Virus record (IMG/VR): IMGVR_UViG_2936072512_000001
Coordinates: 15,611 to 79,610 of that record
Direction: 5' to 3' (one strand)
Source of the DNA: a virus
Lineage: Duplodnaviria; Caudoviricetes
Length of the DNA stretch: 64,000 nt
The notes under the pieces are model-generated. The model worked only from the letters and a program-made list of their open reading frames with translations. It did no database searches and had not been told where the DNA came from. This document shows positions 39,417 to 64,000 of this stretch, one piece after another; position 1 is the first letter of the stretch; each line of letters begins with the position of its first letter. The translations under genes were made by a program, and so were the position numbers.

Positions 39417-40123
39417 GGCAGATAGCCCCAGTCGCGTGCGACCGGCCGCAGCAGCTCCGGCACAAGGTCAGGGGCCGGTAGCGGGCGAGGCGGCTGGACA
39501 GCGCCGGTGCGGATCTTGTCGCGCCAGTCTCCCAGGCCGCGCGGCCACTCGCTGTGGCGCGGCCCGTAGTGGAGCATGGCCGGCTCGAAGTCGACGCCGA
39601 GGAAGCCGCACACGTCCTGCAGCACCGCTTCCGGATCTGCGGTCAGCTGCTCGTACCGGACTGTCCAGCCTGGCAGGGCGGCGCGGGCGTCGGAGACGGC
39701 GTCCATGCAGCCGCGCAGGTATCGGGCAGAGGCGGCGGGGCCGTGCCGGGTGGCTTCCAGCCACGAGGTGAGCACGCTGCCCGGGTGCCGCAGCAGGAAG
39801 ATCCAGCGGGCATCGGGCCAGCAGGAGGCCAGCCGCCGCCAGTGCGGCACGTCCGTGGGGCTCTTGTGCACCAGCGTGGCCTTGCCCGACCGGGCGAGCA
39901 GCTGGTGCGCCAGCTGGTCCCACAGCAGGTAGTCCAGCTCGTCCTGTCCGCCGAGGTCGCCGAGCGCCAGCCGCGCGGGCGGGGACGCGGCGGCGGAAAT
40001 CTTGGCCAGCGGGATCTCGTGCGGGGCGTGCAGGCGGCTGTGGCCGCCGAGTACGGCACGCAGCAGCGTGGACCCTGACCGGGGGGCGCAGGCCACGATG
40101 ACCGGCTCCTTCACCAGACGCAC
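39413..40123 (-). CDS. PAPS-dependent sulfotransferase (Sulfotransfer_3-like)
   Basis: 5'-PSB loop VACAPRSGSTLL, HKSP, 3'-PB FLLRHPGSVLTSW, VRYEQLTADPE..CGFLGV; likely GTG start at 40123 (ORF open to 40162). Confidence 0.88.
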   Translation of the reverse strand: MRLVKEPVIVACAPRSGSTLLRAVLGGHSRLHAPHEIPLAKISAAASPPARLALGDLGGQDELDYLLWDQLAHQLLARSGKATLVHKSPTDVPHWRRLASCWPDARWIFLLRHPGSVLTSWLEATRHGPAASARYLRGCMDAVSDARAALPGWTVRYEQLTADPEAVLQDVCGFLGVDFEPAMLHYGPRHSEWPRGLGDWRDKIRTGAVQPPRPLPAPDLVPELLRPVARDWGYLP

Positions 40124-40176: not shown

Positions 40177-40881
40177 GTGCCCGTCGAGGTTGATCCGTCG
40201 CTGCCGCTCGTGGCCACCGCGTACGACGCCCTGTCGGTCGGGCCGTTCAACACCCCCGCGGGGGCTCTCCTCGTCGTGGGGTTCGCCGGGTACGGGTCGT
40301 CGACCCCGCTGGCCGACGGCGTCACCTTCACCCTCCAGCAAGAGTCCCCGCTGTGGACGTACGCCCAGCTCTGGACGGCTCCGCTGACCGCAGCACGGAC
40401 CGGGCTCGAGATCGAGATGCCCGCAGCGGAGATGGTCGGCGGGATGAAGGTATGGGTCGTGACCGGCCAGGCCTCCCCGGTGGCCGTGGGCCAGGGCGGC
40501 AGCGGGTCGCTGACGACCAACAACGCGACCGTCACCGGCTACAACAGCAGCAGGGCCGGAACGCTCGGCCTGGCCGTTGGCTACGAGGACGACCAAGTCG
40601 CCGAGACCGCGACGCCAACCACCTCCACCGACATCTTCGACCGCTACTACAAATCTGACCTTCACGGCCCGGGTGTCCCCGGGTCGGCTCTGTTCCTGCA
40701 CAAGGCGGCGCCTGCGACGGCGGCCGGGCAGGCGGTCACGTTCAACCTGAACGCCCCCGGCACGGCCGCTGCCGACTGGCATTGGGCCGCGATCGAAATC
40801 CTCAACGCGCCCGACGCGCCCTCGCCGCCGCGCATCGTGCACGCGGCCCGCGCTGCAACGCACCGAGCATCGAGTTGGTAG
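40177..40881 (+). CDS. Beta-rich putative virion adhesin, paralog of 58313-59023
   Basis: GAGGAGG RBS; ends RAATHRASSW. Confidence 0.7.
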   Translation: MPVEVDPSLPLVATAYDALSVGPFNTPAGALLVVGFAGYGSSTPLADGVTFTLQQESPLWTYAQLWTAPLTAARTGLEIEMPAAEMVGGMKVWVVTGQASPVAVGQGGSGSLTTNNATVTGYNSSRAGTLGLAVGYEDDQVAETATPTTSTDIFDRYYKSDLHGPGVPGSALFLHKAAPATAAGQAVTFNLNAPGTAAADWHWAAIEILNAPDAPSPPRIVHAARAATHRASSW

Positions 40882-50667: not shown

Positions 50668-50692
50668 ATCCCGCATGCCACAGGAGGCACGT

Positions 50693-51160
50693 ATGGCGCT
50701 GCGCAGCATGCTCGCCAAGGACTGGACCCTGGAGATCAACACCGGCACCACGGCGTCGCCGACGTGGACCACCGTCAAGGGCCTCACCAAGATGGGCTTC
50801 GAGATCGAGTCGGAGACCGAGGACGACTCCGACTTCGACAGCGACGGCTGGGGCTCCGACGTCGTCACCCAGCGCAAGTACAAGCTGACCGTCGAAGGCC
50901 GCCGCAAGCGCGACGCCGCCAGCGCCGGGTTCGTCCCCGACGCCGGCCAGGAGGCGCTGCGGACCGCGGGACTCGTGGTCGGCCTGGAGGCCTCCGCCGA
51001 GGTGCGCTGGTACCGCAAGGACGGCTCCCCGGACGCCTTCACCGGCACCGTCGCCGTCCAGTACAAGGGCGGCGGCGGCGAGACGACCGACCTCGAGCCG
51101 TTCGAGGCCGAGCTGTCCGGCCAGGGCAAGCCCGTCGCGATCACGAACCCGGCGGCCTGA
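50693..51160 (+). CDS. Major tail (tube) protein
   Basis: AGGAGG RBS; DDSDFDSDGW..VTQRK..GQEALR..VRWY..LSGQGKP. Confidence 0.85.
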   Translation: MALRSMLAKDWTLEINTGTTASPTWTTVKGLTKMGFEIESETEDDSDFDSDGWGSDVVTQRKYKLTVEGRRKRDAASAGFVPDAGQEALRTAGLVVGLEASAEVRWYRKDGSPDAFTGTVAVQYKGGGGETTDLEPFEAELSGQGKPVAITNPAA

Positions 51161-51164
51161 CCTG

Positions 51165-51563
51165 ATGGTGAAGCTGAAGGAACTCGACGACTTCCTTGAC
51201 GACGGCCTTGAGCTGCCGATCAAGGGCAAGACGTACCTGGTGCCGCCCGCCTCCGCCGAGGTGGGCCTGTACTGCCAGCGGCTGGCCGAGGTCGGCATGG
51301 CCGCCGCCAAGGGCCAGCAGGACGAAGGCGCGGCCGAGCTCGACGACGCCCGCGAGTCGGAGCTGTACCGCAAGTGCCTGGGCCCGGTCCTGGACGAGAT
51401 GGTCGCGGACGGCGTCTCGTGGCCGCGCATCAAGCACGCCGCGATCACCGCGTTCTTCTGGATCGCCGGTAACGACGAGGCCGCCGCGACCTTCTGGGAG
51501 CGAGGCCCGGAAGCAGCAGCCCCGGAAGCGACGAAGGGTCGGGCGGCGAGCTCGACGAGCTGA
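51165..51563 (+). CDS. Tail assembly chaperone (gpG-like)
   Basis: Between tube and tape measure; LELPIKGKTY..LGPVLDEMVADGV. Confidence 0.8.
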   Translation: MVKLKELDDFLDDGLELPIKGKTYLVPPASAEVGLYCQRLAEVGMAAAKGQQDEGAAELDDARESELYRKCLGPVLDEMVADGVSWPRIKHAAITAFFWIAGNDEAAATFWERGPEAAAPEATKGRAASSTS

Positions 51564-51835
51564 CGGGGCTCCGCGACTGGTACGACCCCGACGACGGCTT
51601 GACCGTCGACGGGACCGCCGTCACCTGGGGTGCGCTGCTGGAGCGCTGGTCGCTGATCGAGTGCGACCTGCACGCCGAGTACGGCATCGACCTGGACGAG
51701 CCCGGCCTGCTGCAGCAGCGCCGCTGGCGGTGGCTGCGCACCCGCATCCTCGGCCTGCTCGCCCGCGATTCGAGCATCTCCCGCGCGCTCACTCCCGACG
51801 ACCGCAAGCACTCCGGAGGTGAGCCGTGGCGCTGA
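51506..51835 (+). CDS. Tail assembly chaperone -1 frame extension (gpT-like)
   Basis: -1 frame open from 51473; WSLIECDLHAEYGIDL..WRWLRTRILGLL; C-CCG-GAA at 51506 and 51521. Confidence 0.7.
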   Translation, partial: PGSSSPGSDEGSGGELDELTGLRDWYDPDDGLTVDGTAVTWGALLERWSLIECDLHAEYGIDLDEPGLLQQRRWRWLRTRILGLLARDSSISRALTPDDRKHSGGEPWR

Positions 51836-54381
51836 AGATCGGCGAGCTGTACGCGACGCTGGAGCTGCGCAACCAGCTGACCACCCCGCTGGGCAAGGCC
51901 GTCGCAGGCGTCAAGGTGCAGGCGACCGGCATCCACGCCGCCATGGCCATGGTCGGCATCACCGCCGTGAAGGCGCTGGGCAGCCTGGCCTCCGGCGCCG
52001 TCCGCGCGGGCGGGGCGATGGTGTCCGCAGGCGCGAAGATCGCCTCTGCGGGCGCGAAGTCCGGCGCGCTCCTGGCCGGGATCGGCGCGGCCGGTGTGGC
52101 CGCGGGCGGCCTGCTGTCGATGGCGTTCGCCGGTGCGGTCGCCGGAATCGCCATGATCGGCATCAAGGCCGCCGCCCAGTCGGCGCAGGTGAAGGCGGCC
52201 TTCGCCGACATGAAGGCCTCCATCCAGGCCGACCTGGCGAACGCGGCGTCGGTGCTGGAGCAGCCGCTCGCGCAGGCGGCCGGGTCGGTGAAGGGCCTGT
52301 TCTCCTCGCAGATCGCGCCCGCCCTGCAGGGCATGTTCACCTCGATCGCTCCGCTGATCGGCGAGTTCACGGCCGGTCTCGGCGACTTCCTGGGGCCGAT
52401 GCTGCCCGCCATCCAGGGCATCGTCGGCGCGGTCGTGCCGATGTTCTCCCAGCTGGCGGGAAGCATGGGCGTCTTCGGTGGCCAGCTGGCCGCCTTCCTG
52501 GCTCCGCTGTCGGCCGCGATGGCGTCCAACAGCGGCCTCATCGCCACCTTGATCACCGGCATCGGCGGACTCCTCGCCGCGCTCGGACCGCTGCTGGCCG
52601 CGTTCCTGCAGCTGGCCGGGCAGGTCGCCGGGCCGCTGTTCGCCGGGCTGCAGCAGATCGCCGCGGCGTTGTCGACGCACCTGGCGCCGGTGCTGGTCCA
52701 GCTCGGTCCGCTGATCGGTCAGCTGATCGGCCAGTTCGCGCAGATCGCCGTCGCCTTGATCCCGCTGCTGCCGCCCTTCCTGCAGTTGGCCGCCACCCTG
52801 GCCAGCGCGCTCATGCCGGTCCTGACGTTGATCGTCCAGGCGCTGGCTACCGCCCTGCAGCCCATCCTGGTGGCGCTGCAGCCGGTCCTGGCCGCCCTCG
52901 GCGAAGTGTTTTCGCAGGTCGTCATGGCTTTGATGCCGATCCTGCCGCCGATCTCGCAGCTGATCACGTCGCTGCTGCCGGTCGTGGTCACCCTGGTCAA
53001 GTCGCTGACCCCGATCCTGACCATGCTCGCGAACGTCTTCGCCAAGGTCGTCGGCGCGGTGACGCCGTTCCTGCCGCCGCTGGTCAAGCTCGGCACGAGC
53101 GTCCTGCCGCTGATCATGGGCGTCCTCGACGCTTTCGTGAAGCTGCTGTCCGGCGACGTGTCCGGAGCCTTCGAGACGATCAAGAAGGCTGTCTCCACCT
53201 TCGTGACCGGCATCAAGGAGAACTTCAACAAGCTCCTCGACCTCGGCTCCGAGCTGGTCAACGGGATCAAGAACGGCATCGCCAAGCTGTGGAACGGCTT
53301 TATGGCGTGGGTGAAGGAGAAGTTCGGCCAGCTGCCCCAGTGGGTCAAGGACATCTTCGGCATCGCGTCGCCGTCGAAGGTGATGGCCGACATCGGCGGC
53401 AACGTCATCAAGGGCCTCATCGTTGGCATGACCGGCGAAGAGTCCACGATCCGCGACACCACGAAGAGGCTCGCCGACACCGTCCTGGCCGCGTTCAAGG
53501 ACGGCAAGATCAGCAAGGGCGTCAAGGACGGCCTGGTCGAGATGATCCGGGCAGGCAACCGTGACCTGCTCGCGCTGGCCGCCGAGCGGGAGAAGTTCGT
53601 CGAGCGGATGAAGTCCGTCGCCGACGCGATGAAGTCGTTCGCGAACCTGACCAGCCTCGACTTCGGCACCAACGAGCAGGGGCAGAAGAACGCGCCCACG
53701 GCGGGCGGCATCCAGGCCGGGCTGCAGGCCAAGCTCGCCCAGGTCCGCGCCTTCGCCTCCGTCATCAAGAAGCTCGCCAAGCGCGGCCTCAACAAGGCGC
53801 TGCTCGCCCAGATCATCGAGGCCGGGCCCGAGGCCGGCACGGAGCTCGGCCGGGCGCTGCTGGAGGCCGACGCCTCCACCTTCAAGTCGATCAACAACAC
53901 GCAGGCCTCCATCGACAAGGCCGCCAAGCAGGCCGGGAAGAACGCCGCCGCCGCCCTGTTCGAGGCGGGCAAGAACGGCGGCGCGGGCTTTTTGAAGGGT
54001 CTGCTGAACAACAAGAAGGACATCGAGAAGGCGATGCTCGACATCGCCAAGTCGATGGTCGCGGCCATCAAGAAGGGCCTGAAGATCAAGTCGCCGTCGC
54101 AGGTGATGGCCGGGCTGGGCGTGCAGGCGATGGCCGGACTCCAGCGCGGACTCATCGCCGGGACGGCGCCGGTTCTGGCCGCCGCCCGCTCGGTGGCCAC
54201 CGCGCTTCCCGGGGCGATGGCCTCCGACCTCGGCGTCGGCAGCACCGGTTACCGGGTGACGCCGAAGGGCGGGTCCGCGCCGGTCACGGTGAACGTCACC
54301 AACCACTACCCGCAGGCCGAGCCGACCAGCAAGACGGTGAACAAGGGCCTGCAGTACGCGGCGATCCTCGGCCTGACCTGA
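51826..54381 (+). CDS. Tape measure protein 1
   Basis: 851 aa; MALKIGELYATL; amphipathic L/P repeats; GIASPSKVM and KIKSPSQVM. Confidence 0.9.
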   Translation: MALKIGELYATLELRNQLTTPLGKAVAGVKVQATGIHAAMAMVGITAVKALGSLASGAVRAGGAMVSAGAKIASAGAKSGALLAGIGAAGVAAGGLLSMAFAGAVAGIAMIGIKAAAQSAQVKAAFADMKASIQADLANAASVLEQPLAQAAGSVKGLFSSQIAPALQGMFTSIAPLIGEFTAGLGDFLGPMLPAIQGIVGAVVPMFSQLAGSMGVFGGQLAAFLAPLSAAMASNSGLIATLITGIGGLLAALGPLLAAFLQLAGQVAGPLFAGLQQIAAALSTHLAPVLVQLGPLIGQLIGQFAQIAVALIPLLPPFLQLAATLASALMPVLTLIVQALATALQPILVALQPVLAALGEVFSQVVMALMPILPPISQLITSLLPVVVTLVKSLTPILTMLANVFAKVVGAVTPFLPPLVKLGTSVLPLIMGVLDAFVKLLSGDVSGAFETIKKAVSTFVTGIKENFNKLLDLGSELVNGIKNGIAKLWNGFMAWVKEKFGQLPQWVKDIFGIASPSKVMADIGGNVIKGLIVGMTGEESTIRDTTKRLADTVLAAFKDGKISKGVKDGLVEMIRAGNRDLLALAAEREKFVERMKSVADAMKSFANLTSLDFGTNEQGQKNAPTAGGIQAGLQAKLAQVRAFASVIKKLAKRGLNKALLAQIIEAGPEAGTELGRALLEADASTFKSINNTQASIDKAAKQAGKNAAAALFEAGKNGGAGFLKGLLNNKKDIEKAMLDIAKSMVAAIKKGLKIKSPSQVMAGLGVQAMAGLQRGLIAGTAPVLAAARSVATALPGAMASDLGVGSTGYRVTPKGGSAPVTVNVTNHYPQAEPTSKTVNKGLQYAAILGLT

Positions 54382-54389
54382 CCGCCCGC

Positions 54390-54653
54390 TCACCGCTTCC
54401 CACCGCGGGGGGCGGGCGGCTCCGGCCGATTCGCGATCCAGCGCAACAGCCGGAAGATCCGCTCGACAGTCTCGTCGGAGCCGAACAGCAGGCACCCGAT
54501 GATCACGATCACCAGGGCGAGTTCGACGCACACGACAACTACGCCGATCGGGTGCAGGAGGGCCAGCCCCGTCGGCGCGAGAGTGGCAGCCCCAACCGTG
54601 ACCGGCTTGGCGACTGCCGCGATGTTGAGTTTTCCCTGCTGCTTGGGTCCCAT
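54390..54653 (-). CDS. Small membrane moron protein
   Basis: TM segments; ERIFRLLRWIANRPEPP; lower GC3. Confidence 0.6.
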   Translation of the reverse strand: MGPKQQGKLNIAAVAKPVTVGAATLAPTGLALLHPIGVVVVCVELALVIVIIGCLLFGSDETVERIFRLLRWIANRPEPPAPRGGKR

Positions 54654-54798
54654 CCTCGGACACCCCGAAGGGCGACCTCAGCCGCCGAAGCCATGAGAGT
54701 GCAGCTACTCCCAACAGCGTGCTGTACGTGGTGATTTGCCCCCGAGCAGCCATACCAAACCCTCTCGACCCGTCCCGTGCTGAAGGGGAGGTCGAGGC

Positions 54799-57006
54799 GT
54801 GGCGATCAACGTGGGCCAGCTGTTCGCCACCATCGAGCTGCGCGACCAGCTCACGCTGCGGCTCGCGGCCACCCTGCTGGGCCTGCGCCGCGCCGAGTCC
54901 ACGATCGGGCGGCGCACCAGCCGCATCGACAACCAGTTCGTGCGCCTGGCCGCCTCAGTCACCGCCTCGGGCGCGGCCATGGCGGTCGGCATCACCGCCT
55001 CGGCCGCGCGGATCGGGGTGGGGCTGGCCAGCTCGGCCGCGAAGGTGTCGCTGTTCGGAGCGGCGGCGGCCGGGGCGACGCACGCGGTGCTCGCGCTCGG
55101 CGCCGGGCTGGCTCCGCTCGCGGGCGGCCTGGCGGCGGTGCCGGGCGCGGTCGCGCTCAGCGTCGCCGGGTTCGGGGCGCTCGGCCTGGCCCTGTACGGC
55201 ATCGCGGATGCGACCTCGGCCGCGTTCGGTGACGACCAGGACAAGCTCGACAAGGCGCTGGCGAAGCTGTCGCAGTCCGCCCGGGCGGCCATCCTGGAGG
55301 TGCGCGAGCTGCGGCCCGCGCTCGACGGCGTACGGCTCGCCTCGCAGGAGGCGTTCTTCGGCCAGCTCGCCGGCGCGGTGACCGCGCTCGCCGCCGCGCT
55401 GCTGGGGCCGCTGCATGCCGGGCTGTCGGGGGTCGCCTCCGACCTGGGGGCGGCGGCGCGCTCGGTGGTCGACTTCGTCCGCTCCTCCGACTCGGTGCGC
55501 GCGGTCGAGCAGGTTTTCGCCTCGACCAGGCACACGATCATCGCCCTGTCTCAGGCGCTGTGGCCGCTTCTGGGCGGTTTTCGCGACCTGACCGTGGTAG
55601 GCGCACAGTTCACCGCGTCGCTCGCCCCAGAGATCGCTCAGGCGCTTGCCCGCGTCGGGGTGTTCCTGTCGCAGGCTTCGGCTGACGGCCGGGCGTGGGC
55701 GTGGATGGTCGCCGCGGTGGAGACGCTGCGGCAGCTCGGCCGTATCGCGCTCGACGTGTGGCAGATCCTGTCGGGGCTGTTTGAGGCGATGCGTACGGCA
55801 GGCGGTGACGCCCTCGGCGTGCTCGGGGCGCTGGTGTCGTCGGTGGCCGACTTCGTCACCTCCGACGCCGGGCAGCAGGCGCTCGTCGCCGTGTTCGTCG
55901 CCCTGGCCCAGGCCGGTCAGGCGCTCGGGCCGGTGCTGGCCGCGCTCGTGGTCGGGGTCGGCCAGCTCGCGCCCGCCCTGGGCGGCCTTGCCTTGATTGT
56001 CGGCCCGATCCTGACCTCGGCGATTCAGGCTGTGGTGCCTGCGCTGGCGTCGCTGGAGCCCGGCATCGTCGCGATCTTGTCGGCGGTCGGGCGCGCGGTG
56101 GAGGTCCTCGGCCCGTCGCTGACGCTGCTCGGTGAGGCCGTCGCCGCGGCGATGGTGGCCGCGTCGCCGTTCGTCGACGAGCTGGCCGCCGCGATCGTCG
56201 CGCTGATGCCCGGCCTGATCGCGGTCGTCGTCAACGTCGGCCAGGTGTTCGCGGCGCTTGCGCCCGCCCTGGAGCCGGTCGGCACCGCCTTGGCGCAGAT
56301 CATGGTGGAGCTGGCTCCGCTGCTGCCCACGCTGGCCGACCTCGCGGCCCTGATCGTCACCCAGCTCGCCCCGTACGTGGTCGACCTGGCCAGCGTGCTG
56401 GCGGATCTGCTGCTGTCGGTCGCTCCGCTCCTGCCGCCGCTGCTGGACCTGGTGACCATGGTGTTGCCGCCGATGCTGGACCTGCTGCGCTCGATCGCGA
56501 CGCTGCTGCGCGGCGACTTCGCCTCAGCGCTCGGCTTCGCCGACCAGGCCGTGCTCGGCTTCCTGCGCGTCGTCGACAATCTCGGCTGGGCGCTGCTGAC
56601 CGGCCTGTGGAACGGGCTGGTCGCAGGCTATGACTGGATCAAGTCGCAGATCATCGGCTTCTTCTCCTCGATCCTGCCGGACTGGGTCCGGCAGGCGCTC
56701 GGCATCCAGTCGCCGAGCCGCGTGTTCGCCCAGATCGGCCGGTACACGATGCTCGGCCTGCGTGACGGCATGCTGGCCGGGCAGCGCCCGGTCCTGCAGG
56801 CGGCGCAGCGCATCTCCGACCGGCTGTCGGGCTCGTTCTCGCCCGACCTGTCGGGATCGGTCGCCTCCACGGGCGCACGGCTGTCGGCGCCGGGCCGCGG
56901 CCCGACGATGATCTTTCACGTGACGGCGGTCAACCCGCTGCCGGAGACCACGTCCGAGACGGTCAATCGAGGCCTGCAGATGGCCGGGGCTCTCGGCGTC
57001 GCCTAA
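54799..57006 (+). CDS. Tape measure-like protein 2
   Basis: 735 aa; GGAGG RBS; MAINVGQLFATIELRDQLT; ALGIQSPSRVF; C-terminus matches TMP1. Confidence 0.85.
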   Translation: MAINVGQLFATIELRDQLTLRLAATLLGLRRAESTIGRRTSRIDNQFVRLAASVTASGAAMAVGITASAARIGVGLASSAAKVSLFGAAAAGATHAVLALGAGLAPLAGGLAAVPGAVALSVAGFGALGLALYGIADATSAAFGDDQDKLDKALAKLSQSARAAILEVRELRPALDGVRLASQEAFFGQLAGAVTALAAALLGPLHAGLSGVASDLGAAARSVVDFVRSSDSVRAVEQVFASTRHTIIALSQALWPLLGGFRDLTVVGAQFTASLAPEIAQALARVGVFLSQASADGRAWAWMVAAVETLRQLGRIALDVWQILSGLFEAMRTAGGDALGVLGALVSSVADFVTSDAGQQALVAVFVALAQAGQALGPVLAALVVGVGQLAPALGGLALIVGPILTSAIQAVVPALASLEPGIVAILSAVGRAVEVLGPSLTLLGEAVAAAMVAASPFVDELAAAIVALMPGLIAVVVNVGQVFAALAPALEPVGTALAQIMVELAPLLPTLADLAALIVTQLAPYVVDLASVLADLLLSVAPLLPPLLDLVTMVLPPMLDLLRSIATLLRGDFASALGFADQAVLGFLRVVDNLGWALLTGLWNGLVAGYDWIKSQIIGFFSSILPDWVRQALGIQSPSRVFAQIGRYTMLGLRDGMLAGQRPVLQAAQRISDRLSGSFSPDLSGSVASTGARLSAPGRGPTMIFHVTAVNPLPETTSETVNRGLQMAGALGVA

Positions 57007-57337: not shown

Positions 57338-57430
57338 GCCCGCCTCCACGAAGGTGTCTGACGGCGTACACGTTAGATGCCCGGGGCCATACCTGTCTAC
57401 TCGCAGACATCTTTCACCCTGGGGGTGGTT

Positions 57431-58300
57431 GTGCCGACGTACATCCTCGACGGCGTCGAGCTCGACCACCCGTCAGGCTGCTGGAAGCTCGCCCCCGGCA
57501 CCCGGCGTCGCCCGCTGCCGGGCGTGCGCTCAGTCGAGCTCACCCTGCCCGGCAGGGCGGGCGAGGTGCCCATCATGGGCCTGGACCACGAGACCACCCA
57601 GTTCGCCCTGGAGTTCAAGATCACGTCGCGGACCCCGTCCGGGGGCGACGGCGGGTTCGAGCAGCTGGAGGCCAACCTGGAGGCGCTGTCGGCGCTGCTC
57701 GGGGTCCGCCACCGGCTGATGACCCTGGAGTACGTGGCGGGCACCCTCACCCGGGTCGCCCAGGTGACCGTCACCGCCACCTCCGAGCCCGACCTGAAGA
57801 TCGGAGCGCTGCGCGCCCGCCTGACCGCCGTCGTCCGCGTCCCCGGCGTCTACTGGCGCGACGAGATCGAATCCACCTGGACCGGCAGCGCGAACACCGC
57901 CGACCAGCCGGTGACAACTCTCGCCGGCAGTACGGCGCCGGTCACGGACGCGCTGATCCGCTACACCGGCCCGGCCGTGACGCCCACGCTGGTCGACGTG
58001 GCCACCGGCGACACCATCAGCCGCGCCTCGGGCCTGCTCGCCTCCGAACGGCTCATCATCGACTGCGCCGCGATGCGCGCCAGCAAGGTCACCACCGACA
58101 CCTGGGACATCAACGCCGGTACGGACGTGACCGGCTCCATCATCGCCACCGGCCCCGGCTCGGCGTTCCGCTGGCTGAACCTCACCCCGGCGATGGCCGT
58201 GGGCGACCCGCACTCGCGCGCCGTCCTGCTGACGACGTCGGCCACTTCGACCACGGGCGCATCCAAGGTCGAGGTCCGCGCGCGCCGCGCCTACCTGTGA
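57431..58300 (+). CDS. Distal tail (Dit-like) protein
   Basis: After tape measure; LPGRAG, PGVYWRD, GSTAPVTDA, ends RRAYL. Confidence 0.8.
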   Translation: MPTYILDGVELDHPSGCWKLAPGTRRRPLPGVRSVELTLPGRAGEVPIMGLDHETTQFALEFKITSRTPSGGDGGFEQLEANLEALSALLGVRHRLMTLEYVAGTLTRVAQVTVTATSEPDLKIGALRARLTAVVRVPGVYWRDEIESTWTGSANTADQPVTTLAGSTAPVTDALIRYTGPAVTPTLVDVATGDTISRASGLLASERLIIDCAAMRASKVTTDTWDINAGTDVTGSIIATGPGSAFRWLNLTPAMAVGDPHSRAVLLTTSATSTTGASKVEVRARRAYL

Positions 58301-58312
58301 TCTGGAGCGCGA

Positions 58313-59023
58313 ATGATCACGATGCTGACGTCGCCGTCCCTGGTCTCCGCCATGACCACCACCGGCGTGAGCACGGCCTCCTTCGCTCCTCCCGAAGGGG
58401 CGTTCCTGGTGGCGTGCGTGATGAGCAAGTACGACGCGTCGGTGGCGCTGACCAACACCGGGTCGGCGCTTTCGTGGACCATGCGAGCCCAGTCGATCAA
58501 CTCCAATGGCATCGCAGCCATCTACACCGCGCCCGCCATCGCCCAGTCCATGACCGTCACCGGCACCATGGACTTCATCGGCAGTCCCGGCAACTCGCAA
58601 GGCATCGCGCTCAAGGTCAACGTGCTGGGCGGCGTCGACATCAGCAACCCCATCGGCGCGACCGGCGACGTGACCAGCTTGGGCGTGCAGAACTGGACGT
58701 TCAACGCCTACACCTCCACCAAGGCCGATTCGTGGGGGTTCTGCGCCGCAGCCGACGACTACCAGACCGCCACCCCGACCTCCACCGACGTCAACGAGCC
58801 GTTCAACCAGTCGGGCGCCGGCTACCTGTCCGGCATGGCGATGCGCAAGGCCTCCGCGACCGCCTCAGCGGGCACGGCGGTGAGCTTCAACATCCAGACG
58901 GGCGGCGTGTCGACGAGCACCCGCTGGGCGACCTGCGCGGTGGAGGTCCTCGCCGCCGTCGACGGCCTTGGGCACCGCGCCACCTTGTCCAGGGCGGCCG
59001 TCCATCGCGCGGCAGCGTGGTGA
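58313..59023 (+). CDS. Beta-rich putative virion adhesin, paralog of 40177-40881
   Basis: Collinear similarity; ends RAAVHRAAAW. Confidence 0.7.
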   Translation: MITMLTSPSLVSAMTTTGVSTASFAPPEGAFLVACVMSKYDASVALTNTGSALSWTMRAQSINSNGIAAIYTAPAIAQSMTVTGTMDFIGSPGNSQGIALKVNVLGGVDISNPIGATGDVTSLGVQNWTFNAYTSTKADSWGFCAAADDYQTATPTSTDVNEPFNQSGAGYLSGMAMRKASATASAGTAVSFNIQTGGVSTSTRWATCAVEVLAAVDGLGHRATLSRAAVHRAAAW

Positions 59024-59071
59024 ACGCCGCCTCCACTGCAGGCCCCCGCATTCAGAATTGACGACAGGAGC

Positions 59072-59608
59072 ATGATGACCAGCACCAACGAGCTCCCGCC
59101 CTTCGGCCAGCGCGGCATCTGCCAGACCTTCCCCACCTGGCTCATCAACCTCGAAACAATCACCCCGCCCGGCGACACCTACTCGGCGTACGCCGTCGAG
59201 ATGACGATCCCGGCGGGCCGCGTGTGTTCGTCGATGGCGGTGGCGTTGCGGACGATGCCCAACAGCACCGGCTGGTGGCGCGGCGCCCTCTACGAGAAGA
59301 TCGAGGGTCGGCTGACGCCGGTGGCCGTCACCGGCCGCGCCCCGGTCGGAAACGGTCAGACCTGGGCCACCGCCGCGCTGGTGCGGCCTCTCGAACCCGC
59401 CGAGGAGCCGCGCAGGGTGTACGCGGTGGTGGTCGTCGCCAACGTGGAGTACGCGGCGGTGAAGATGTACAAGCCCAGCAACGAGTACGAGTTCATGTAC
59501 TCCTGGGTCAACGTCGGGATGAAGGATGCCCCGGCCCTGCTGGAGCTCGGCTCCGAGGCCGGATGGCTGGGTAGCAACGCACTGCTCCCGCTCATCGCCC
59601 TCGACTGA
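59072..59608 (+). CDS. Hypothetical beta-rich protein
   Basis: AGGAG RBS; high GC3. Confidence 0.65.
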   Translation: MMTSTNELPPFGQRGICQTFPTWLINLETITPPGDTYSAYAVEMTIPAGRVCSSMAVALRTMPNSTGWWRGALYEKIEGRLTPVAVTGRAPVGNGQTWATAALVRPLEPAEEPRRVYAVVVVANVEYAAVKMYKPSNEYEFMYSWVNVGMKDAPALLELGSEAGWLGSNALLPLIALD

Positions 59609-60229: not shown

Positions 60230-62962
60230 ATGCTTGTGTTGCGGTTGGCGATCTACGAGCCGAACGGCACCCGGACCGGCGTGCTGCCGTACCCGCTCGG
60301 GCTGCAGGTGGCGCAGCCGCTCAACGACGTGCCCGCGCTCCGCCTGACGTTCTCGGCGGCGGCCGGGACGCAGCTGGCGGGCGGGCCGTGCGAGGTCGGT
60401 GTCGAGTGGAGCGACGACGACGGCCAGACCTGGACCGAGGCCTACGACGGCCGGTTCGTGTCCATCAAGCGGCGCTCCGAGCTCGCCGACCGCGCCGCCG
60501 TGCAGGCGCTGGAGTTGCCCGGCTACGTGTGGCTGCTGCGCAAGATGCTGCTCTACCTGGGCAGCGCCGACCTCGTCGATGGCAAGCGTCCGTTCCTGTC
60601 GGCCACGCCTGGGTCGATCCTGCAGACGATGTTGCAGGAAGGGCAGGCGCGCGGCGTGCTGCCCGAGCTCGACTGGGACTTCTCGCCCACCCTCGACTCG
60701 GGCGGCCTGGCCTGGGCCAAGGTGCTCACCATCTACTACGAGCCCGGCATCGATGCCCTCACCATGCTCATCAACCTCGCCGAGCAGGGCGTCCTCGACT
60801 TCCGCATGACCGGCCGCACCCTGCAGGTGTTCAACGCCGACAGCATGCTCAACCGCAACCTGACCACGCTCGACCCGGCCGTCGACCTGCGCCTGGGCCG
60901 CGAGGTCGTCGAAGCGCCGGACGAAGGCACGTGGGAGGACACCGCCAACGCCGTGCTGGTGACCGGCGACCAGGGCATCGCCCAGCAGTGGGTCGACGCT
61001 GGTAACCCGTCGCCGTGGGGCCGGTGGGAGATCCACGTCGGCCAGGGTGGCGTGTCCGACCCGGTCACCATGGGCGTGCTCGCCCAGGCGACGCTGGCCC
61101 GCTCCGCGCGGGAGAAGGTGCAGCGCACCCGCGGGCTCCTCCTCGGACCGCAGGCCCGGTTCGCGCCGTGGCGCGACTTCCGGCCCGGTGACACCCTGTC
61201 GGCGCCCGGCGAGGCCGGCCTGCAGCAGGCGCTGCGCGTCCGCCAGGTCACCGTGACCCGCGACGACAAGGGCGTGCTCGGCGGCTCCGTCGTCCTGCAC
61301 GACCGCTTTCTCGACCGCGCGGTACGGCTCGCCCGGCGCACGCAGGGCATCCTCGGCGGGTCGACCGCGTCCGGAGGAACCGGAGCGAGGCCTGCGCCGC
61401 CCGCGCCCGCGCCGCGCACCCCGGCCGCTCCGACCGGCCTGGTCGTCGACGCCGACGCCTACCTGGATGAGCACGGCTACGCCCGCGGCCTCGTGGTGGC
61501 GACGTGGGGCGCGGTCACGCAGGACATCGGCGGGGTGGCGCTGGACCCGGACGGCTACGAGCTGTTCGCCCGCCGCGACGTGCCCGGACAGCCGTGGTTT
61601 CTGCTGGCGGCCACGCAGGCAGGCGACACCGACGCCGCGCGCGGCCCGCTGCCGGTGGGGGAGTCGTGGGCGTTCAAGGTGCGCGCCGTCTACCTGGGCA
61701 AGAAGTCGGCGTTCTCGTCCGTGGTGACCGTGGCCATCCCCGACGACCCGGACGCGCCGCCCACGCCGTCGACGCCCGGCCTCGAGTCACGGCTCGGCGT
61801 CGTGCACGTCGCATGGGACGGGCTCGGCTCGCTCGGCGAGGGCATGCCGGCCGACTTCTCGCACGTGATCGTGGAGATGCAGGACCCACTCGCGCCCGGC
61901 TGGGCGCCGGTCGGGACGCTCCCGGCCGCGGGCGCGCTGGTGGTGCCCGGCCTGCCGTACGGCTCCGACCGCGACTTCCGACTGATCAGCGTGGACCACT
62001 CCGGCAACACCTCAGCGGCCTCGGCCGTCGCGACGATCGCCGCGGTGCAGCTGGTGTCCGGCGACGCGGCAGCCTCCTCGATCCAGACCGGGCACCTGGC
62101 GGCCAACGCCGTCACCGCCGACAAGATCGCCGCAGGGCAGGTGACCGCCGCCAAGCTCGAAGCCGTGATGACGCTCACCACGCGCCTGGTCGCCGGCGAC
62201 CCGGGCGCCGCGCGGGTCGAGCTGAACGCGGGCGGCCTGGAGGCCTTCGACGCGGGCGGCATGCAGACCGTCGACATCTCCTCCACCGGGCAGGTGTCGA
62301 TCGTCGGCAGCCTGGCCTCGGGCGTGGCCGGTGACCGTGTCCTGATCAACCCGCCCGGCTCGCCGTTCCCGGAGATCCGGTTCATCCCGTCATCGGCGAC
62401 GACCAACTACTCCAAGATCTACTCCAACGCGCTCACCTACCCCGGCGAGGCGACCATGGTCATGGAGTCCGGCGTGAACACCGGGGGCACGGCGGTCACG
62501 CAGGTCGTGCACGCCGCCTCGGAGTACCGGGTGTGGGTGCTGCGCCCGTCCGACCACGCCCAGCGCGGCGCATACCTGAGGCTCGATGAGGGCCAGGCGC
62601 TGCTGGGCTGGACGCACCCGACGAACGGCACCCAGCAGCTGCGCATCTCGGAGGCGTCGACCTCCCACCTGGGCAGGTGGACGCACGCCTCCAACAGCAA
62701 CGCCGGGCTGATCATGTTCGAGGCGACGGTGACGCGCGGCGCGACCTACTACGTGGTGTCGTGGCCCGCGACGATGGCGTCCACCCCGCACATGGTGTGG
62801 TCGGCGCGCGTCGGCGCGGCGGCTCCGTTCGCGCAGGCGCCCACGGACCTGCACCTGTACACGCGCAACACGGTCAACGCGCAGTTCTACTCGCCGACCG
62901 CCGCGGCGTCGGGCACTCCGCCGACGATCACGTTCACGATCTGGGCCTGGCGGCCCGCGTAG
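60230..62962 (+). CDS. Tail tip / Tal-hub protein 1 with FN3-like domains
   Basis: GAAGGGGG RBS, ATG at 60230; hub-like N-terminus, PAAPTGL / PPTPSTP FN3 starts, LAANAVTADKIAAG repeats. Confidence 0.85.
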   Translation: MLVLRLAIYEPNGTRTGVLPYPLGLQVAQPLNDVPALRLTFSAAAGTQLAGGPCEVGVEWSDDDGQTWTEAYDGRFVSIKRRSELADRAAVQALELPGYVWLLRKMLLYLGSADLVDGKRPFLSATPGSILQTMLQEGQARGVLPELDWDFSPTLDSGGLAWAKVLTIYYEPGIDALTMLINLAEQGVLDFRMTGRTLQVFNADSMLNRNLTTLDPAVDLRLGREVVEAPDEGTWEDTANAVLVTGDQGIAQQWVDAGNPSPWGRWEIHVGQGGVSDPVTMGVLAQATLARSAREKVQRTRGLLLGPQARFAPWRDFRPGDTLSAPGEAGLQQALRVRQVTVTRDDKGVLGGSVVLHDRFLDRAVRLARRTQGILGGSTASGGTGARPAPPAPAPRTPAAPTGLVVDADAYLDEHGYARGLVVATWGAVTQDIGGVALDPDGYELFARRDVPGQPWFLLAATQAGDTDAARGPLPVGESWAFKVRAVYLGKKSAFSSVVTVAIPDDPDAPPTPSTPGLESRLGVVHVAWDGLGSLGEGMPADFSHVIVEMQDPLAPGWAPVGTLPAAGALVVPGLPYGSDRDFRLISVDHSGNTSAASAVATIAAVQLVSGDAAASSIQTGHLAANAVTADKIAAGQVTAAKLEAVMTLTTRLVAGDPGAARVELNAGGLEAFDAGGMQTVDISSTGQVSIVGSLASGVAGDRVLINPPGSPFPEIRFIPSSATTNYSKIYSNALTYPGEATMVMESGVNTGGTAVTQVVHAASEYRVWVLRPSDHAQRGAYLRLDEGQALLGWTHPTNGTQQLRISEASTSHLGRWTHASNSNAGLIMFEATVTRGATYYVVSWPATMASTPHMVWSARVGAAAPFAQAPTDLHLYTRNTVNAQFYSPTAAASGTPPTITFTIWAWRPA

Positions 62963-62971
62963 AGGGGGCCT

Positions 62972-63124
62972 GTGCGCGAGCTGCCGATTTCCAACGAGGC
63001 GATCATCGCGGCCCTGCGGCGCAGGATCGACCAGCTCATCTACGAGAACGCCATGCTGCAGGCCGCCGTCGACCAGATGCACGCGGGGGAGGAGGGCAGC
63101 CATGCAGGTGATCATCCCGCCTGA
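62972..63124 (+). CDS. 50-aa coiled-coil protein
   Basis: GAGGGGG RBS; IIAALRRRIDQLIYENAMLQAAV. Confidence 0.6.
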   Translation: MRELPISNEAIIAALRRRIDQLIYENAMLQAAVDQMHAGEEGSHAGDHPA

Positions 63125-64000
63125 CCGGCCCCGGTACGGGCTGCGCCTGGTCGCCTACGCCCCGAATGGCGCACGGCTCGGCCTGCTGCCCGGCCACCTC
63201 GGGTTCGACGCAGGCCTGCCGCTCAACGACGTGCCGTCGCTGCAGCTGTCCTACTCCGGCAACGCGCTCGGCGCTGACCGGCTGGCGCAGCACTGCGAGA
63301 TCGCGGTCGAGTACGCCGTCGACGGCACCTCGTGGACCGAGCCGCTGAACGGCCGGTTCCTGCGCATCAAGCGGTCCGGCGACTCCATCGACCGGGCCAA
63401 GTCGCGCTCCTACGACTGCCCCGGGTGGGCGTGGCAGCTGCGCAAGCTGCTGCTCTACCCCAACGCGTTCATGGTCGACGGCAGGCGCCGGTTCGAGACC
63501 GCGTCCCCGGGCGACATCCTGACCGCGTTCGTCGACGAAGCCCAAGGCCGCGGCACACTGCCCGGCCTCGCGGTCGACTTCACCGACTCCCACGACTCTT
63601 CCGGCCAGCCGTGGCAGGCCGAGCTGACCATCGGCGTCGAGCCCGGCACCGACCTGCTCGCCATGCTGATCAACCTGGCCGACCAGGGCGTGTGCGACTG
63701 GGCGATGCAGGGCCGCACCCTGCGCGTCTGGAACGAGGGCACCGCGCTGGCCCGCCAGCTGTCGGCCGGGGCCGCGCCGGTCGAGCTGCGGCTGGGCCGC
63801 GACATCGACCAGGCCCCCGACGACGCCACCCTGGAAGACGCCGCCTCCTCCATCTTGGTGATGGGGGAGGAGTCGCTGAACGTCGAGGTGACCAACCCGT
63901 CCGCCGTGATGCCGTGGGGCCGGTGGGAGGCCGCCCAGTCCCAGGGCGGCGTCGCCGACGAAGGCACCGCCCGCTTCCTGGCGCAGATCGCGCTGGAGCG
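63102..64000 (+). CDS. Tail tip / Tal-hub protein 2 (partial, paralog of 60230)
   Basis: GGAGGAGG RBS, ATG at 63102; open to the window end; LRLVAYAPNG, PLNDVP, MLINLADQGV, LRLGRD, PWGRWE. Confidence 0.85.
   Translation, partial: MQVIIPPDRPRYGLRLVAYAPNGARLGLLPGHLGFDAGLPLNDVPSLQLSYSGNALGADRLAQHCEIAVEYAVDGTSWTEPLNGRFLRIKRSGDSIDRAKSRSYDCPGWAWQLRKLLLYPNAFMVDGRRRFETASPGDILTAFVDEAQGRGTLPGLAVDFTDSHDSSGQPWQAELTIGVEPGTDLLAMLINLADQGVCDWAMQGRTLRVWNEGTALARQLSAGAAPVELRLGRDIDQAPDDATLEDAASSILVMGEESLNVEVTNPSAVMPWGRWEAAQSQGGVADEGTARFLAQIALE

Follow-up and report, generated by a model that had tools for sequence, protein, structure and literature searches.

Siphophage tail tips have been described with one hub gene. 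The locus presented here resembles the siphophage hub (Tal) genes that carry a fibre extension (80alpha gp59, SPP1 gp21, T5 pb3, and those of Douge and Bxb1) in its gp27-like N-terminal region of about 370 aa, in the position of the gene after those of the tape measure protein (TMP) and the distal tail protein (Dit), and in the FN3 domains and fibre that follow the hub. It differs from them in having two diverged tandem copies that end in separate variable tips and that, in relatives, are each accompanied by a partner gene, in that no lysin domain was found, and in an identity to solved hubs of only 8–15%. A whole widespread lineage keeps these two diverged hub-fibre genes under selection. In the literature searched, neither two hub/Tal paralogues in one siphophage nor two alternative hubs were found, and the wording "two tape measure" in PMC8407745 refers to two chaperone products.

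The same hub fold occurs in the VgrG proteins of the T6SS, and VgrG chains are among the structural matches reported below. VgrG sets comprise several paralogues with a shared core and a differing business end, each beside its own accessory gene, which is also how the Tal pair is built. In contrast to VgrG, the Tal genes belong to a complete siphophage with capsid genes and not to a secretion system, and the analogy is one of logic rather than of membership; neither a gp5-like needle nor a PAAR protein was found in the Tal context.

The Streptomyces plasmid-phages pZL12 and pSLE1 (86–90 kb) are described in PMC4487206 as circular elements with ParAB and phage particle genes. Our element is similar in its size of about 107 kb, in its ParB and ParA-like ATPase, and in its contig ends, which appear to meet inside the second Tal gene. 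It differs from both in its host family, and no hub homology to them was detectable.

The element and its tail module

The window is the whole stretch of DNA that was analysed (64,000 nt). Its positions 1–63661 correspond to the minus strand of contig C26, and its last 339 nt are without an exact match in the assembly. The element, from a soil actinomycete of the Nonomuraea type, is a plasmid-like prophage, and C26 carries genes for ParB (PF02195, PF17762) and a ParA-like ATPase (PF13614, PF01656) together with TerL, portal, MCP and tail genes. Exact terminal overlaps of 38–63 nt were seen in four (of 85–95 kb) among eight related contigs; these overlaps, and the second Tal gene that spans both ends of C26, suggest that the C26 element is circular. 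In genome G263 the module lies within a single contig of 10 Mb, and so is integrated there. In their general appearance the host elements are large plasmid-prophages, which have received little study in Streptosporangiaceae.

The tail genes follow each other in the order tube (50675–51160), chaperone (51165–51563), TMP1 (51826–54381; 851 aa; plus strand, as are all those that follow), TMP2 (54799–57006; 735 aa), Dit (57377–58300), two small genes (58313–59608), Tal1 (60230–62962), a small ORF (62972–63124) and Tal2 (63102–64000). Both tape measures match PHROG tape-measure families (best E 6.9e-38 for TMP1 and 1.1e-58 for TMP2), and TMP2 is 31–37% identical to TMP1 over two stretches. Tube, chaperone and Dit each gave one match within positions 40001–64000 of the window, in agreement with the initial annotation, which had counted one tube, one chaperone pair and one Dit alongside two tape measures. 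Dit (phrog_33, E 5.4e-8) has orthologues, 46–69% identical and directly after TMP, in 13 related loci. The two genes inserted between Dit and Tal1 encode proteins of unknown function of 236 and 178 aa, for which no Pfam or PHROG family passed the cut-off, with a sub-threshold DUF6132 match for the 178-aa protein only. This interval varies among relatives, with anything from about 20 to about 1200 bp between Dit and Tal A. A 30%-identical paralogue of the 236-aa protein is encoded at 40177–40881.

The order of the tail module is common to eight related tandem-pair loci with a TMP-Dit module upstream; a further pair, in G041, has a TerL-like ORF there instead. Downstream of Tal B lie only a partner gene and lysis genes, so another fibre gene is absent, and the endolysin (CHAP and PG_binding_1) is a separate gene downstream of the Tal genes. 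An origin of the pair as two adjacent prophages was considered and rejected, given that tube, chaperone and Dit are all single, and that the pair recurs in relatives.

Tal1, the "A" paralogue (910 aa, encoded at 60230–62959), comprises a gp27-like hub (aa 1 to about 370), a Gly/Pro linker, an FN3 region, fibre repeats and a variable tip. The part of Tal2, the "B" paralogue, that lies in the window is an ORF open at the window edge (63102–63998), which encodes the N-terminal 299 aa of a hub. In BLASTP, the two are colinear from residue 4/14 to 289/298, with 139/290 identities (48%), 63% positives and an E-value of 4e-79, which establishes a second hub-type gene paralogous to the 60230 protein, as had been proposed. 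All eight shared blocks listed earlier (LRLxxYxPNGxRxGxLP, PLNDVP, W.E...GRF..IKR, LRK.LLY, MLINLA.QGV, GRTL.V.N, LRLGR and PWGRWE...QGGV) are present in this alignment. Both genes start with ATG, preceded by GGAGGAGG in Tal2 and by GAAGGGGG in Tal1, whose start is the same as that of its orthologues. Tal2 shares 61–67% identity with the second-of-pair genes of relatives. The small ORF between the Tal genes encodes a coiled-coil-like product of 50 aa (phrog_9321, unknown function, E 6.7e-6) and overlaps the start of Tal2; counterparts of 52–56 aa precede Tal B in G114, G013 and G041, and the ORF is also retained in a further copy of Tal2 on contig C25. No promoter-like or terminator-like site was found between the Tal genes, which would probably be co-transcribed.

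Tal2 runs past the window, and the initial annotation had raised the prospect of a truncation or frameshift further downstream. This does not appear to be so. The last 494 aa of Tal2 are encoded at G000:C26:106290-104809 (minus strand), at the opposite end of the same contig and outside the window, and this C-terminal piece (P0003) overlaps the C25 copy at 96.5% nucleotide identity. With the C25 copy as a ruler, the unseen gap is 421 nt long and in frame. In total, 793 of about 934 aa are seen in one frame, and the other 141 codons are deduced from the paralogous C25 copy, in which they are open; the gene is thus apparently intact, at about 934 aa. The 339 nt at the end of the window continue the alignments to Tal1 and to the C25 copy (97.6% identical) gap-free and unbroken, and an assembly chimera was rejected on these grounds.

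Hub fold and domain content

An AF2 model of Tal1 aa 1–400 (pLDDT 79.9, pTM 0.74) matched 73 PDB chains at E ≤ 0.001 in Foldseek, the best being CIS, VgrG, Mu gp44, 80alpha and T4 gp27 hubs with query-normalised TM-scores of 0.40–0.58. Matches with E-values from 2e-16 to 1e-8 included the 80alpha baseplate (6v8i_AE), Mu gp44 (1wru), T4 gp27 (1k28_D), Douge (8zdo_s) and Bxb1 (9d93_Oa). The N-terminal region of about 370 aa is therefore predicted to fold as a hub of the gp27/Mu gp44/80alpha-Tal type, with its four domains, and the gene lies where a hub gene is expected, downstream of tape measure and Dit. Tal2 is assigned as a hub through its 48% identity to Tal1 and its place in the shared alignment. 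Both match phrog_31834 ("tail protein"; E 1.4e-25 for Tal1 and 1.7e-5 for the Tal2 fragment). By sequence, a hub profile gave nothing useful against PDB chains, with one match at E 0.1, and it took the comparison of folds to reveal the likeness.

Pfam found no domain in Tal1, in the Tal2 fragment or in the sixth second-of-pair orthologue. Weak fn3 matches, all below the curated cut-off, were obtained for the other five of the six second-of-pair orthologues and for one single-Tal protein scanned, and one scanned Tal orthologue had a sub-threshold Gp58 match. A cell-wall hydrolase domain was not found by Pfam in the C-terminal extension of Tal1, the Tal2 fragment or the orthologues scanned, and in the strict sense these proteins are not tail-associated lysins. 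Because the extension is without a lysin domain and the endolysin is separate, "hub-fibre protein" is the better name.

The Tal pair and the tape measures among relatives

Among 301 Streptosporangiaceae genomes searched, 17 had a match and 10 of these carried tandem Tal pairs; this genome-wide search was far more sensitive than a strict one by two peptide patterns, which recovered two related loci only. Of 14 loci with a full-length hub, 10 have the pair. Intact loci that carry a B-clade hub number 11, and 10 of them have it, the exception being G007, in which a B-type hub stands alone. First-of-pair genes fall on one side of a branch with support of 94/97, while second-of-pair genes and one single gene form a clade (97/94), in which Tal2 of the window groups with that of G186 (80/79). 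The tree is unrooted and does not fix the order of duplication and losses. More widely, at least 850 proteins are hub homologues at E ≤ 1e-20, many of them paired on one contig. The nearest cultured phages are Kela, JustBecause, Satis and other Streptomyces phages, at 29–32% identity and with one match per genome. A tblastn search of 72,556 plasmids with Tal1 returned only partial matches to the FN3/fibre part in three records, two of which are Streptomyces plasmids of 90–93 kb.

The initial annotation had proposed that TMP1 and TMP2 are cognate to Tal1 and Tal2, each pair building its own kind of tail. It is consistent with this proposal that both double-TMP loci, the window and G186, also carry two Tal genes, and that TMP1, nearest to the TMP1-like gene of G186 (58% identity), belongs to the type that serves as the only tape measure in two single-Tal loci, G205 and G234 (38–39% identity). 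The wider distribution, however, largely refutes it. A single TMP is found in 7 of the 10 tandem-Tal loci (G114, G013, G045, G263, G159, G096 and G093/L012), two TMPs only in the window and G186, and none in the 11 kb upstream of the pair in G041; the sole TMP of the seven single-TMP loci is of the TMP2 type. The Tal duplication is common to all of these lineages, whereas TMP doubling is confined to the two loci that group together. Moreover, all 14 TMPs examined, including both copies of both double-TMP phages, end in one C-terminal motif that runs through the family, which gives no hint of two separate docking specificities. Since most pairs occur with one TMP and the motif is shared, the Tal pair is an old lineage trait and not a set of TMP partners. 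Double Tal and double TMP are thus distributed largely independently, and cognate pairs are highly improbable. What stands of the proposed two-tip system is a second, apparently intact hub gene, and two kinds of tip are still a live reading; the link to the two tape measures is not supported.

Selection, drift and the hub position

Both Tal copies are under purifying selection, as estimated from codon comparisons of three pairs of relatives (hub dN/dS 0.12–0.33 in both copies), and their tips are variable (dN/dS up to 0.25–0.91). Within each group, identity is about 0.6–0.8 over aa 1–700 and falls to 0.15–0.38 in the last 160–280 aa. In 7/7 relatives checked, A precedes B and both have a partner gene of their own, the partners being paralogous. 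The Tal2 partner was modelled with AF2 as a beta sheet with helices (pLDDT 79.7); the model had no PDB match at E ≤ 0.001, and the partner proteins have no Pfam or PHROG family above the cut-off, so that the label of chaperone is only a guess.

Of the two genes in this phage, Tal2 is well kept, whereas Tal1 has drifted and lost its partner. Among near-invariant hub columns, 18 of 74 deviate in Tal1 and 2 of 51 in Tal2. Tal1 also has the longest end branch among full-length A genes (0.57), and its partner gene, which all seven relatives checked possess, is missing both at the locus and from the rest of the assembled genome. Tal1 could accordingly be read as a redundant gene that drifts towards loss and is open by chance, with only Tal2 functional here. 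We regard this as quite unlikely. Its 910 codons are stop-free in DNA of 70% GC, its alignment with A orthologues (51–57% identity) covers the full length, and all 46 invariant hub residues are kept. True decay looks different: a second additional copy, on contig C33, is frameshifted and has lost about 70 nt. Elsewhere, Tal A of G093 (29/73; hub only, 379 aa) and Tal B of G159 (22/74) have drifted too, with 0–8 deviating columns in the others. Drift of one copy in different lineages, together with the B-only locus of G007, fits partial redundancy of the two genes.

Our preferred reading, to which we tentatively give a probability of roughly 45%, is that Tal1 and Tal2 are interchangeable hub-fibre modules from an old duplication, giving two tip types independently of TMP number. 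The duplicated unit would have been a siphophage tail-tip module, with a hub fused to FN3 domains, fibre and variable tip, each copy originally with a small partner gene. The duplication itself characterises an entire lineage among the Streptosporangiaceae phages, of large (85–107 kb), plasmid-like and temperate members. Only three differences between A and B are fixed in a 450-column hub alignment, and there is therefore no sign of a new interface in either hub. As the same hub surfaces are kept in both, either protein could take the single hub place that the TMP-Dit initiator offers beneath the Dit ring. We infer that both Tals reach the virion and share this one position. Among the particles of one burst, some tails would then end in Tal1 fibres and some in Tal2 fibres, and mixed trimers might possibly occur as well, so that the phage would have two receptor specificities without a DNA switch. 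If so, the pair would be a form of host-range bet-hedging that uses neither an invertase, a DGR nor recombination.

Alternative copies predict frequent losses, and only G007 among the 11 loci is single, which could equally mean that both are needed in each particle. On that reading every tip would contain both Tals, in a mixed hub, in a stacked or second ring or by lateral attachment, and each virion would bear two fibres, matured by their respective partners and directed, for instance, at a primary and a secondary receptor. The retention of the pair, the purifying selection on both copies and the constant order with paralogous partners all agree with it, as does the 10–11-aa N-terminal extension found on B-type hubs and not on A-type hubs. 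A tips are more conserved (0.30–0.38) than B tips (0.15–0.26), as a division of labour predicts. VgrG paralogues of the T6SS are said to form mixed trimers, and three fixed hub differences are also what a heterotrimer would give. Against this, the hubs show no diagnostic divergence that marks a new position, one copy has drifted strongly in three lineages, and A is without its partner in this phage. The fibre and tip parts of A and B are only 14–32% identical, which makes it unlikely that they form a mixed fibre trimer. To our knowledge, no solved siphophage tip has a second gp27-like ring. The solved siphophage tips described in PMC13252515 have a homotrimeric hub within a conserved 6:6:3 tube-Dit-hub core, which counts against our preferred reading as well as against two hubs in one tip. 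We consider both Tals in each tip somewhat unlikely; if true, the supposedly universal homotrimeric 6:6:3 core would be broken, and the baseplate architecture would be new. With alternative tips or with both in one, the pair offers a natural system for how the hub position tolerates two occupants, and a template for actinomycete phages that have two receptor specificities. As a lead only, an Atlas look-up placed the tip of Tal2 in "tail fiber protein" clusters at 0.94.

Tail module and the two hub-fibre genes

The window, with a G+C content of ~70%, contains a complete siphophage late region at 40-64 kb on the + strand, including the TerL, portal, and major capsid protein genes. On the same strand, the tail module comprises single tube (50675-51160) and chaperone (51165-51563) genes, two tape measure genes (TMP1, 851 aa, 51826-54381; TMP2, 735 aa, 54799-57006), a single distal tail protein gene (Dit, 57377-58300), two small genes with no assigned function, the first-of-pair hub gene Tal1 (910 aa, 60230-62962), a small ORF (50 aa, 62972-63124), and the second-of-pair gene Tal2, running from 63102 to the window edge. 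The two tape measures (51826-57006) are 31-37% identical and hence not a recent tandem duplicate. The 236-aa gene between Dit and Tal1 (58313-59023) is paralogous to a gene of this phage's head region (40177-40881; 30% identity, E 4.6e-10).

Tal1 and Tal2 are paralogues, as the initial annotation had proposed: they align colinearly over 290 residues, 48% of them identical (E 4e-79), and all the shared blocks that it listed fall within the alignment. Residues 1-400 of Tal1 were modelled with AF2 from an alignment of 24 hub domains (mean pLDDT 79.9), and the model matched central hub proteins in Foldseek (E 2e-16 to 1e-8). Matches included contractile-injection-system hubs, VgrG hubs, Mu gp44, T4 gp27, the 80alpha baseplate Tal chain, and the tips of mycobacteriophages Douge and Bxb1. 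By sequence alone, the hub had no match in the PDB. Beyond the hub, the chain continues with a linker rich in Gly/Pro, then an FN3 region and fibre-like repeats, and ends in a terminal domain. Because no lysin domain was detected in Tal1, the Tal2 fragment, or six Tal2 orthologues, "hub-fibre protein" is a better description than "tail-associated lysin".

In the account given by PMC13252515, the tube-Dit-hub core is conserved at 6:6:3 in mycobacteriophages and most solved siphophages, and its hub is a homotrimer. The nearest cultured relatives are Streptomyces phages of ~185 kb, which show 29-32% identity and one match per genome. The literature searches turned up no siphophage described as having two hub paralogues.

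Completeness of Tal2 and the host element

Window positions 1-63661 map to the minus strand of C26, a contig of the genome assembly G000. The last 339 nt (63662-64000) have no exact match in G000, yet continue Tal2 without a break; evidently, a longer version of this contig was the source of the window. Residues 442-930 of a full-length Tal2 orthologue match the opposite end of C26 (C26:106290-104812, minus strand), which opens straight into a 494-codon frame (P0003). Next along are a gene of 243 aa and an endolysin of the CHAP + PG_binding_1 type. A decayed copy on another G000 contig, C25, overlaps both Tal2 pieces: C25:668-1134 is 97.6% identical to window 63534-64000, and C25:1556-1978 is 96.5% identical to the C26 end, so that, with C25 as the ruler, 421 nt are unseen. 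Since the frame at the C26 end and this ruler join 299 + 141 + 494 codons in one frame, the middle 141 being sized from the C25 copy, in which the gap is open, the most likely product of Tal2 is an intact ~934-aa protein (orthologues, 925-1096 aa). Tal2 thus shows no apparent truncation, its C-terminal 494 codons lying at the other end of C26.

The decayed copy is part of a second Tal1-Tal2 region in G000 (C33:1214-3461, L010; C25:524-2368, L009), which is 96-98% identical in DNA sequence. Its Tal1 copy is frameshifted and has a deletion of ~70 nt. A 429-nt deletion removes codons 1-144 of its Tal2 copy and fuses it to the small ORF, and a 3.1-kb deletion joins this copy to the endolysin's PG-binding end. 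This near-repeat probably caused the assembly break inside Tal2.

With pieces of Tal2 at both of its ends, C26 would close on itself through this gene. It carries ParB (C26:70546-71577) and a ParA-like ATPase (C26:69761-70549) in addition to all virion genes, and the element (window 1-63661 plus C26:63662-106290) looks like a circular plasmid-prophage of ~107 kb. Of eight related contigs, four with lengths of 84.8-95.7 kb have exact terminal overlaps of 38-63 nt (G096:C23, 60 nt; G114:C31, 47 nt; G041:C20, 63 nt; G093:C75, 38 nt), and the 94-kb contig of one homologue is labelled a plasmid by its source. The element is reminiscent of pZL12 and pSLE1, the plasmid-phages of Streptomyces described in PMC4487206. 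No hub homology to plasmids was found in PLSDB.

Distribution and tape measures

A profile of the two hubs, run against 301 genomes of the host's family, Streptosporangiaceae, matched 17, including G000. Two full-length tandem hubs occur in ten of these (the G096 pair straddles contig ends with a 60-nt terminal overlap), a single full-length hub in four (G205, G234, G079, and G007), and hub fragments only in three (G146, G071, and G143). In a wider protein search, homologues at E<=1e-20 numbered at least 850; most were from Streptosporangiaceae, and many were paired on one contig. Their sources list them as hypothetical or under the names "phage tail protein" and "fibronectin type III domain-containing protein".

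Gene content at the loci was compared by mapping the window's proteins onto 20-kb stretches. The initial annotation had suggested that TMP1/TMP2 might be the cognate partners of Tal1/Tal2, giving two tail tips, and had named independent distribution of the two doublings among relatives as the result that would refute this; that is largely what the relatives show. Only the window and G186 have both genes doubled among the ten tandem-pair loci; seven have a single TMP (G114, G013, G045, G263, G159, G096, and G093/L012), and G041 has a TerL-like ORF in the expected place of the tail module. Moreover, all 14 TMPs end in one common VNVTNHYPQAEPTSxTVNRGLQYAGALG-like motif, including both copies of both double-TMP loci. 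The nearest match of TMP1 is the only TMP of G205 and G234, which have one Tal each; TMP2 is the type serving as sole TMP in double-Tal loci. G186 carries the same two TMP types as the window. G114 and G096 instead have a single TMP ORF, reaching 1019 aa, in which the TMP2-like region is repeated internally.

Divergence, partner genes, and the role of two hubs

In an unrooted maximum-likelihood tree of 25 hub domains, first-of-pair (A) genes lie on one side of a branch (support 94/97), and second-of-pair (B) genes form a clade with the single hub of G007 (97/94). The remaining single hubs join on the B side, and Tal2 falls in the group that contains sole hubs. Across three pairs of relatives, dN/dS in both copies was 0.12-0.33 for the hub and 0.16-0.40 for the middle part; tip values were 0.25-0.91, highest in B. 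Identity among members of a group is 0.56-0.82 as far as residue ~650-700, falling to 0.15-0.38 at the end. A conserved body with a variable end is, at the level of sequence, the pattern of receptor-binding proteins. Between A and B, hub identity is even (0.48-0.59 per 50 aa) and only three alignment columns hold fixed differences, which argues that both hubs keep one structural role.

The duplication covers a module rather than the Tal gene alone. In all seven relatives checked, the gene after Tal A encodes a protein of 150-173 aa, with a 52-56-aa coiled-coil ORF 3′ of this partner in three (G114, G013, and G041). The gene after Tal B encodes one of 184-243 aa, both in the window and in the three relatives for which the downstream region was fetched (G186, G013, and G263). 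A partners and B partners are themselves paralogues (25-31% identity, E down to 1e-12). The window has a 50-aa coiled-coil ORF 9 nt after the Tal1 stop as the sole remnant (62962-63124); no A-partner homologue was found anywhere in G000. The partner family conserves W, PK..E..AAEYGL, and DPL..R, and had no Pfam, PHROG, or PDB-fold match. Since only the partner gene and a lysis cassette lie 3′ of Tal B in relatives, no fibre candidates are left besides the two Tals. Between the two genes there is no site resembling a promoter or a terminator.

The reading that we favour, inferred from these comparisons at a probability of roughly 0.45, is that Tal1 and Tal2 are interchangeable hub-fibre modules that would compete for one hub position, and that this competition could yield two tip types. 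Ranked second, and unlikely, is an arrangement with both Tals in one tip, a reading supported chiefly by how rarely either copy is lost; a mixed trimeric fibre seems improbable, given that the fibre and tip parts of A and B are just 14-32% identical. That Tal1 is dying in the present element ranks third and is distinctly improbable. Because one copy has drifted strongly in different lineages, a B-type hub stands alone in G007, and the A partner has been lost here, the two copies may be partially redundant. The drift shows at near-invariant hub columns, with deviations at 18 of 74 in Tal A here, 29 of 73 in G093 Tal A, and 22 of 74 in G159 Tal B, against 0-8 in all others.

In G093, Tal A has shrunk to a 379-aa hub. 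Its locus (L012 8842-14589, a Nonomuraea maritima record) is a split module, in which this hub-only Tal A and a short Tal B of ~504-530 aa are followed by separate 492- and 531-aa proteins matching the FN3/fibre part of Tal1; hubs and fibres can therefore be separate chains.
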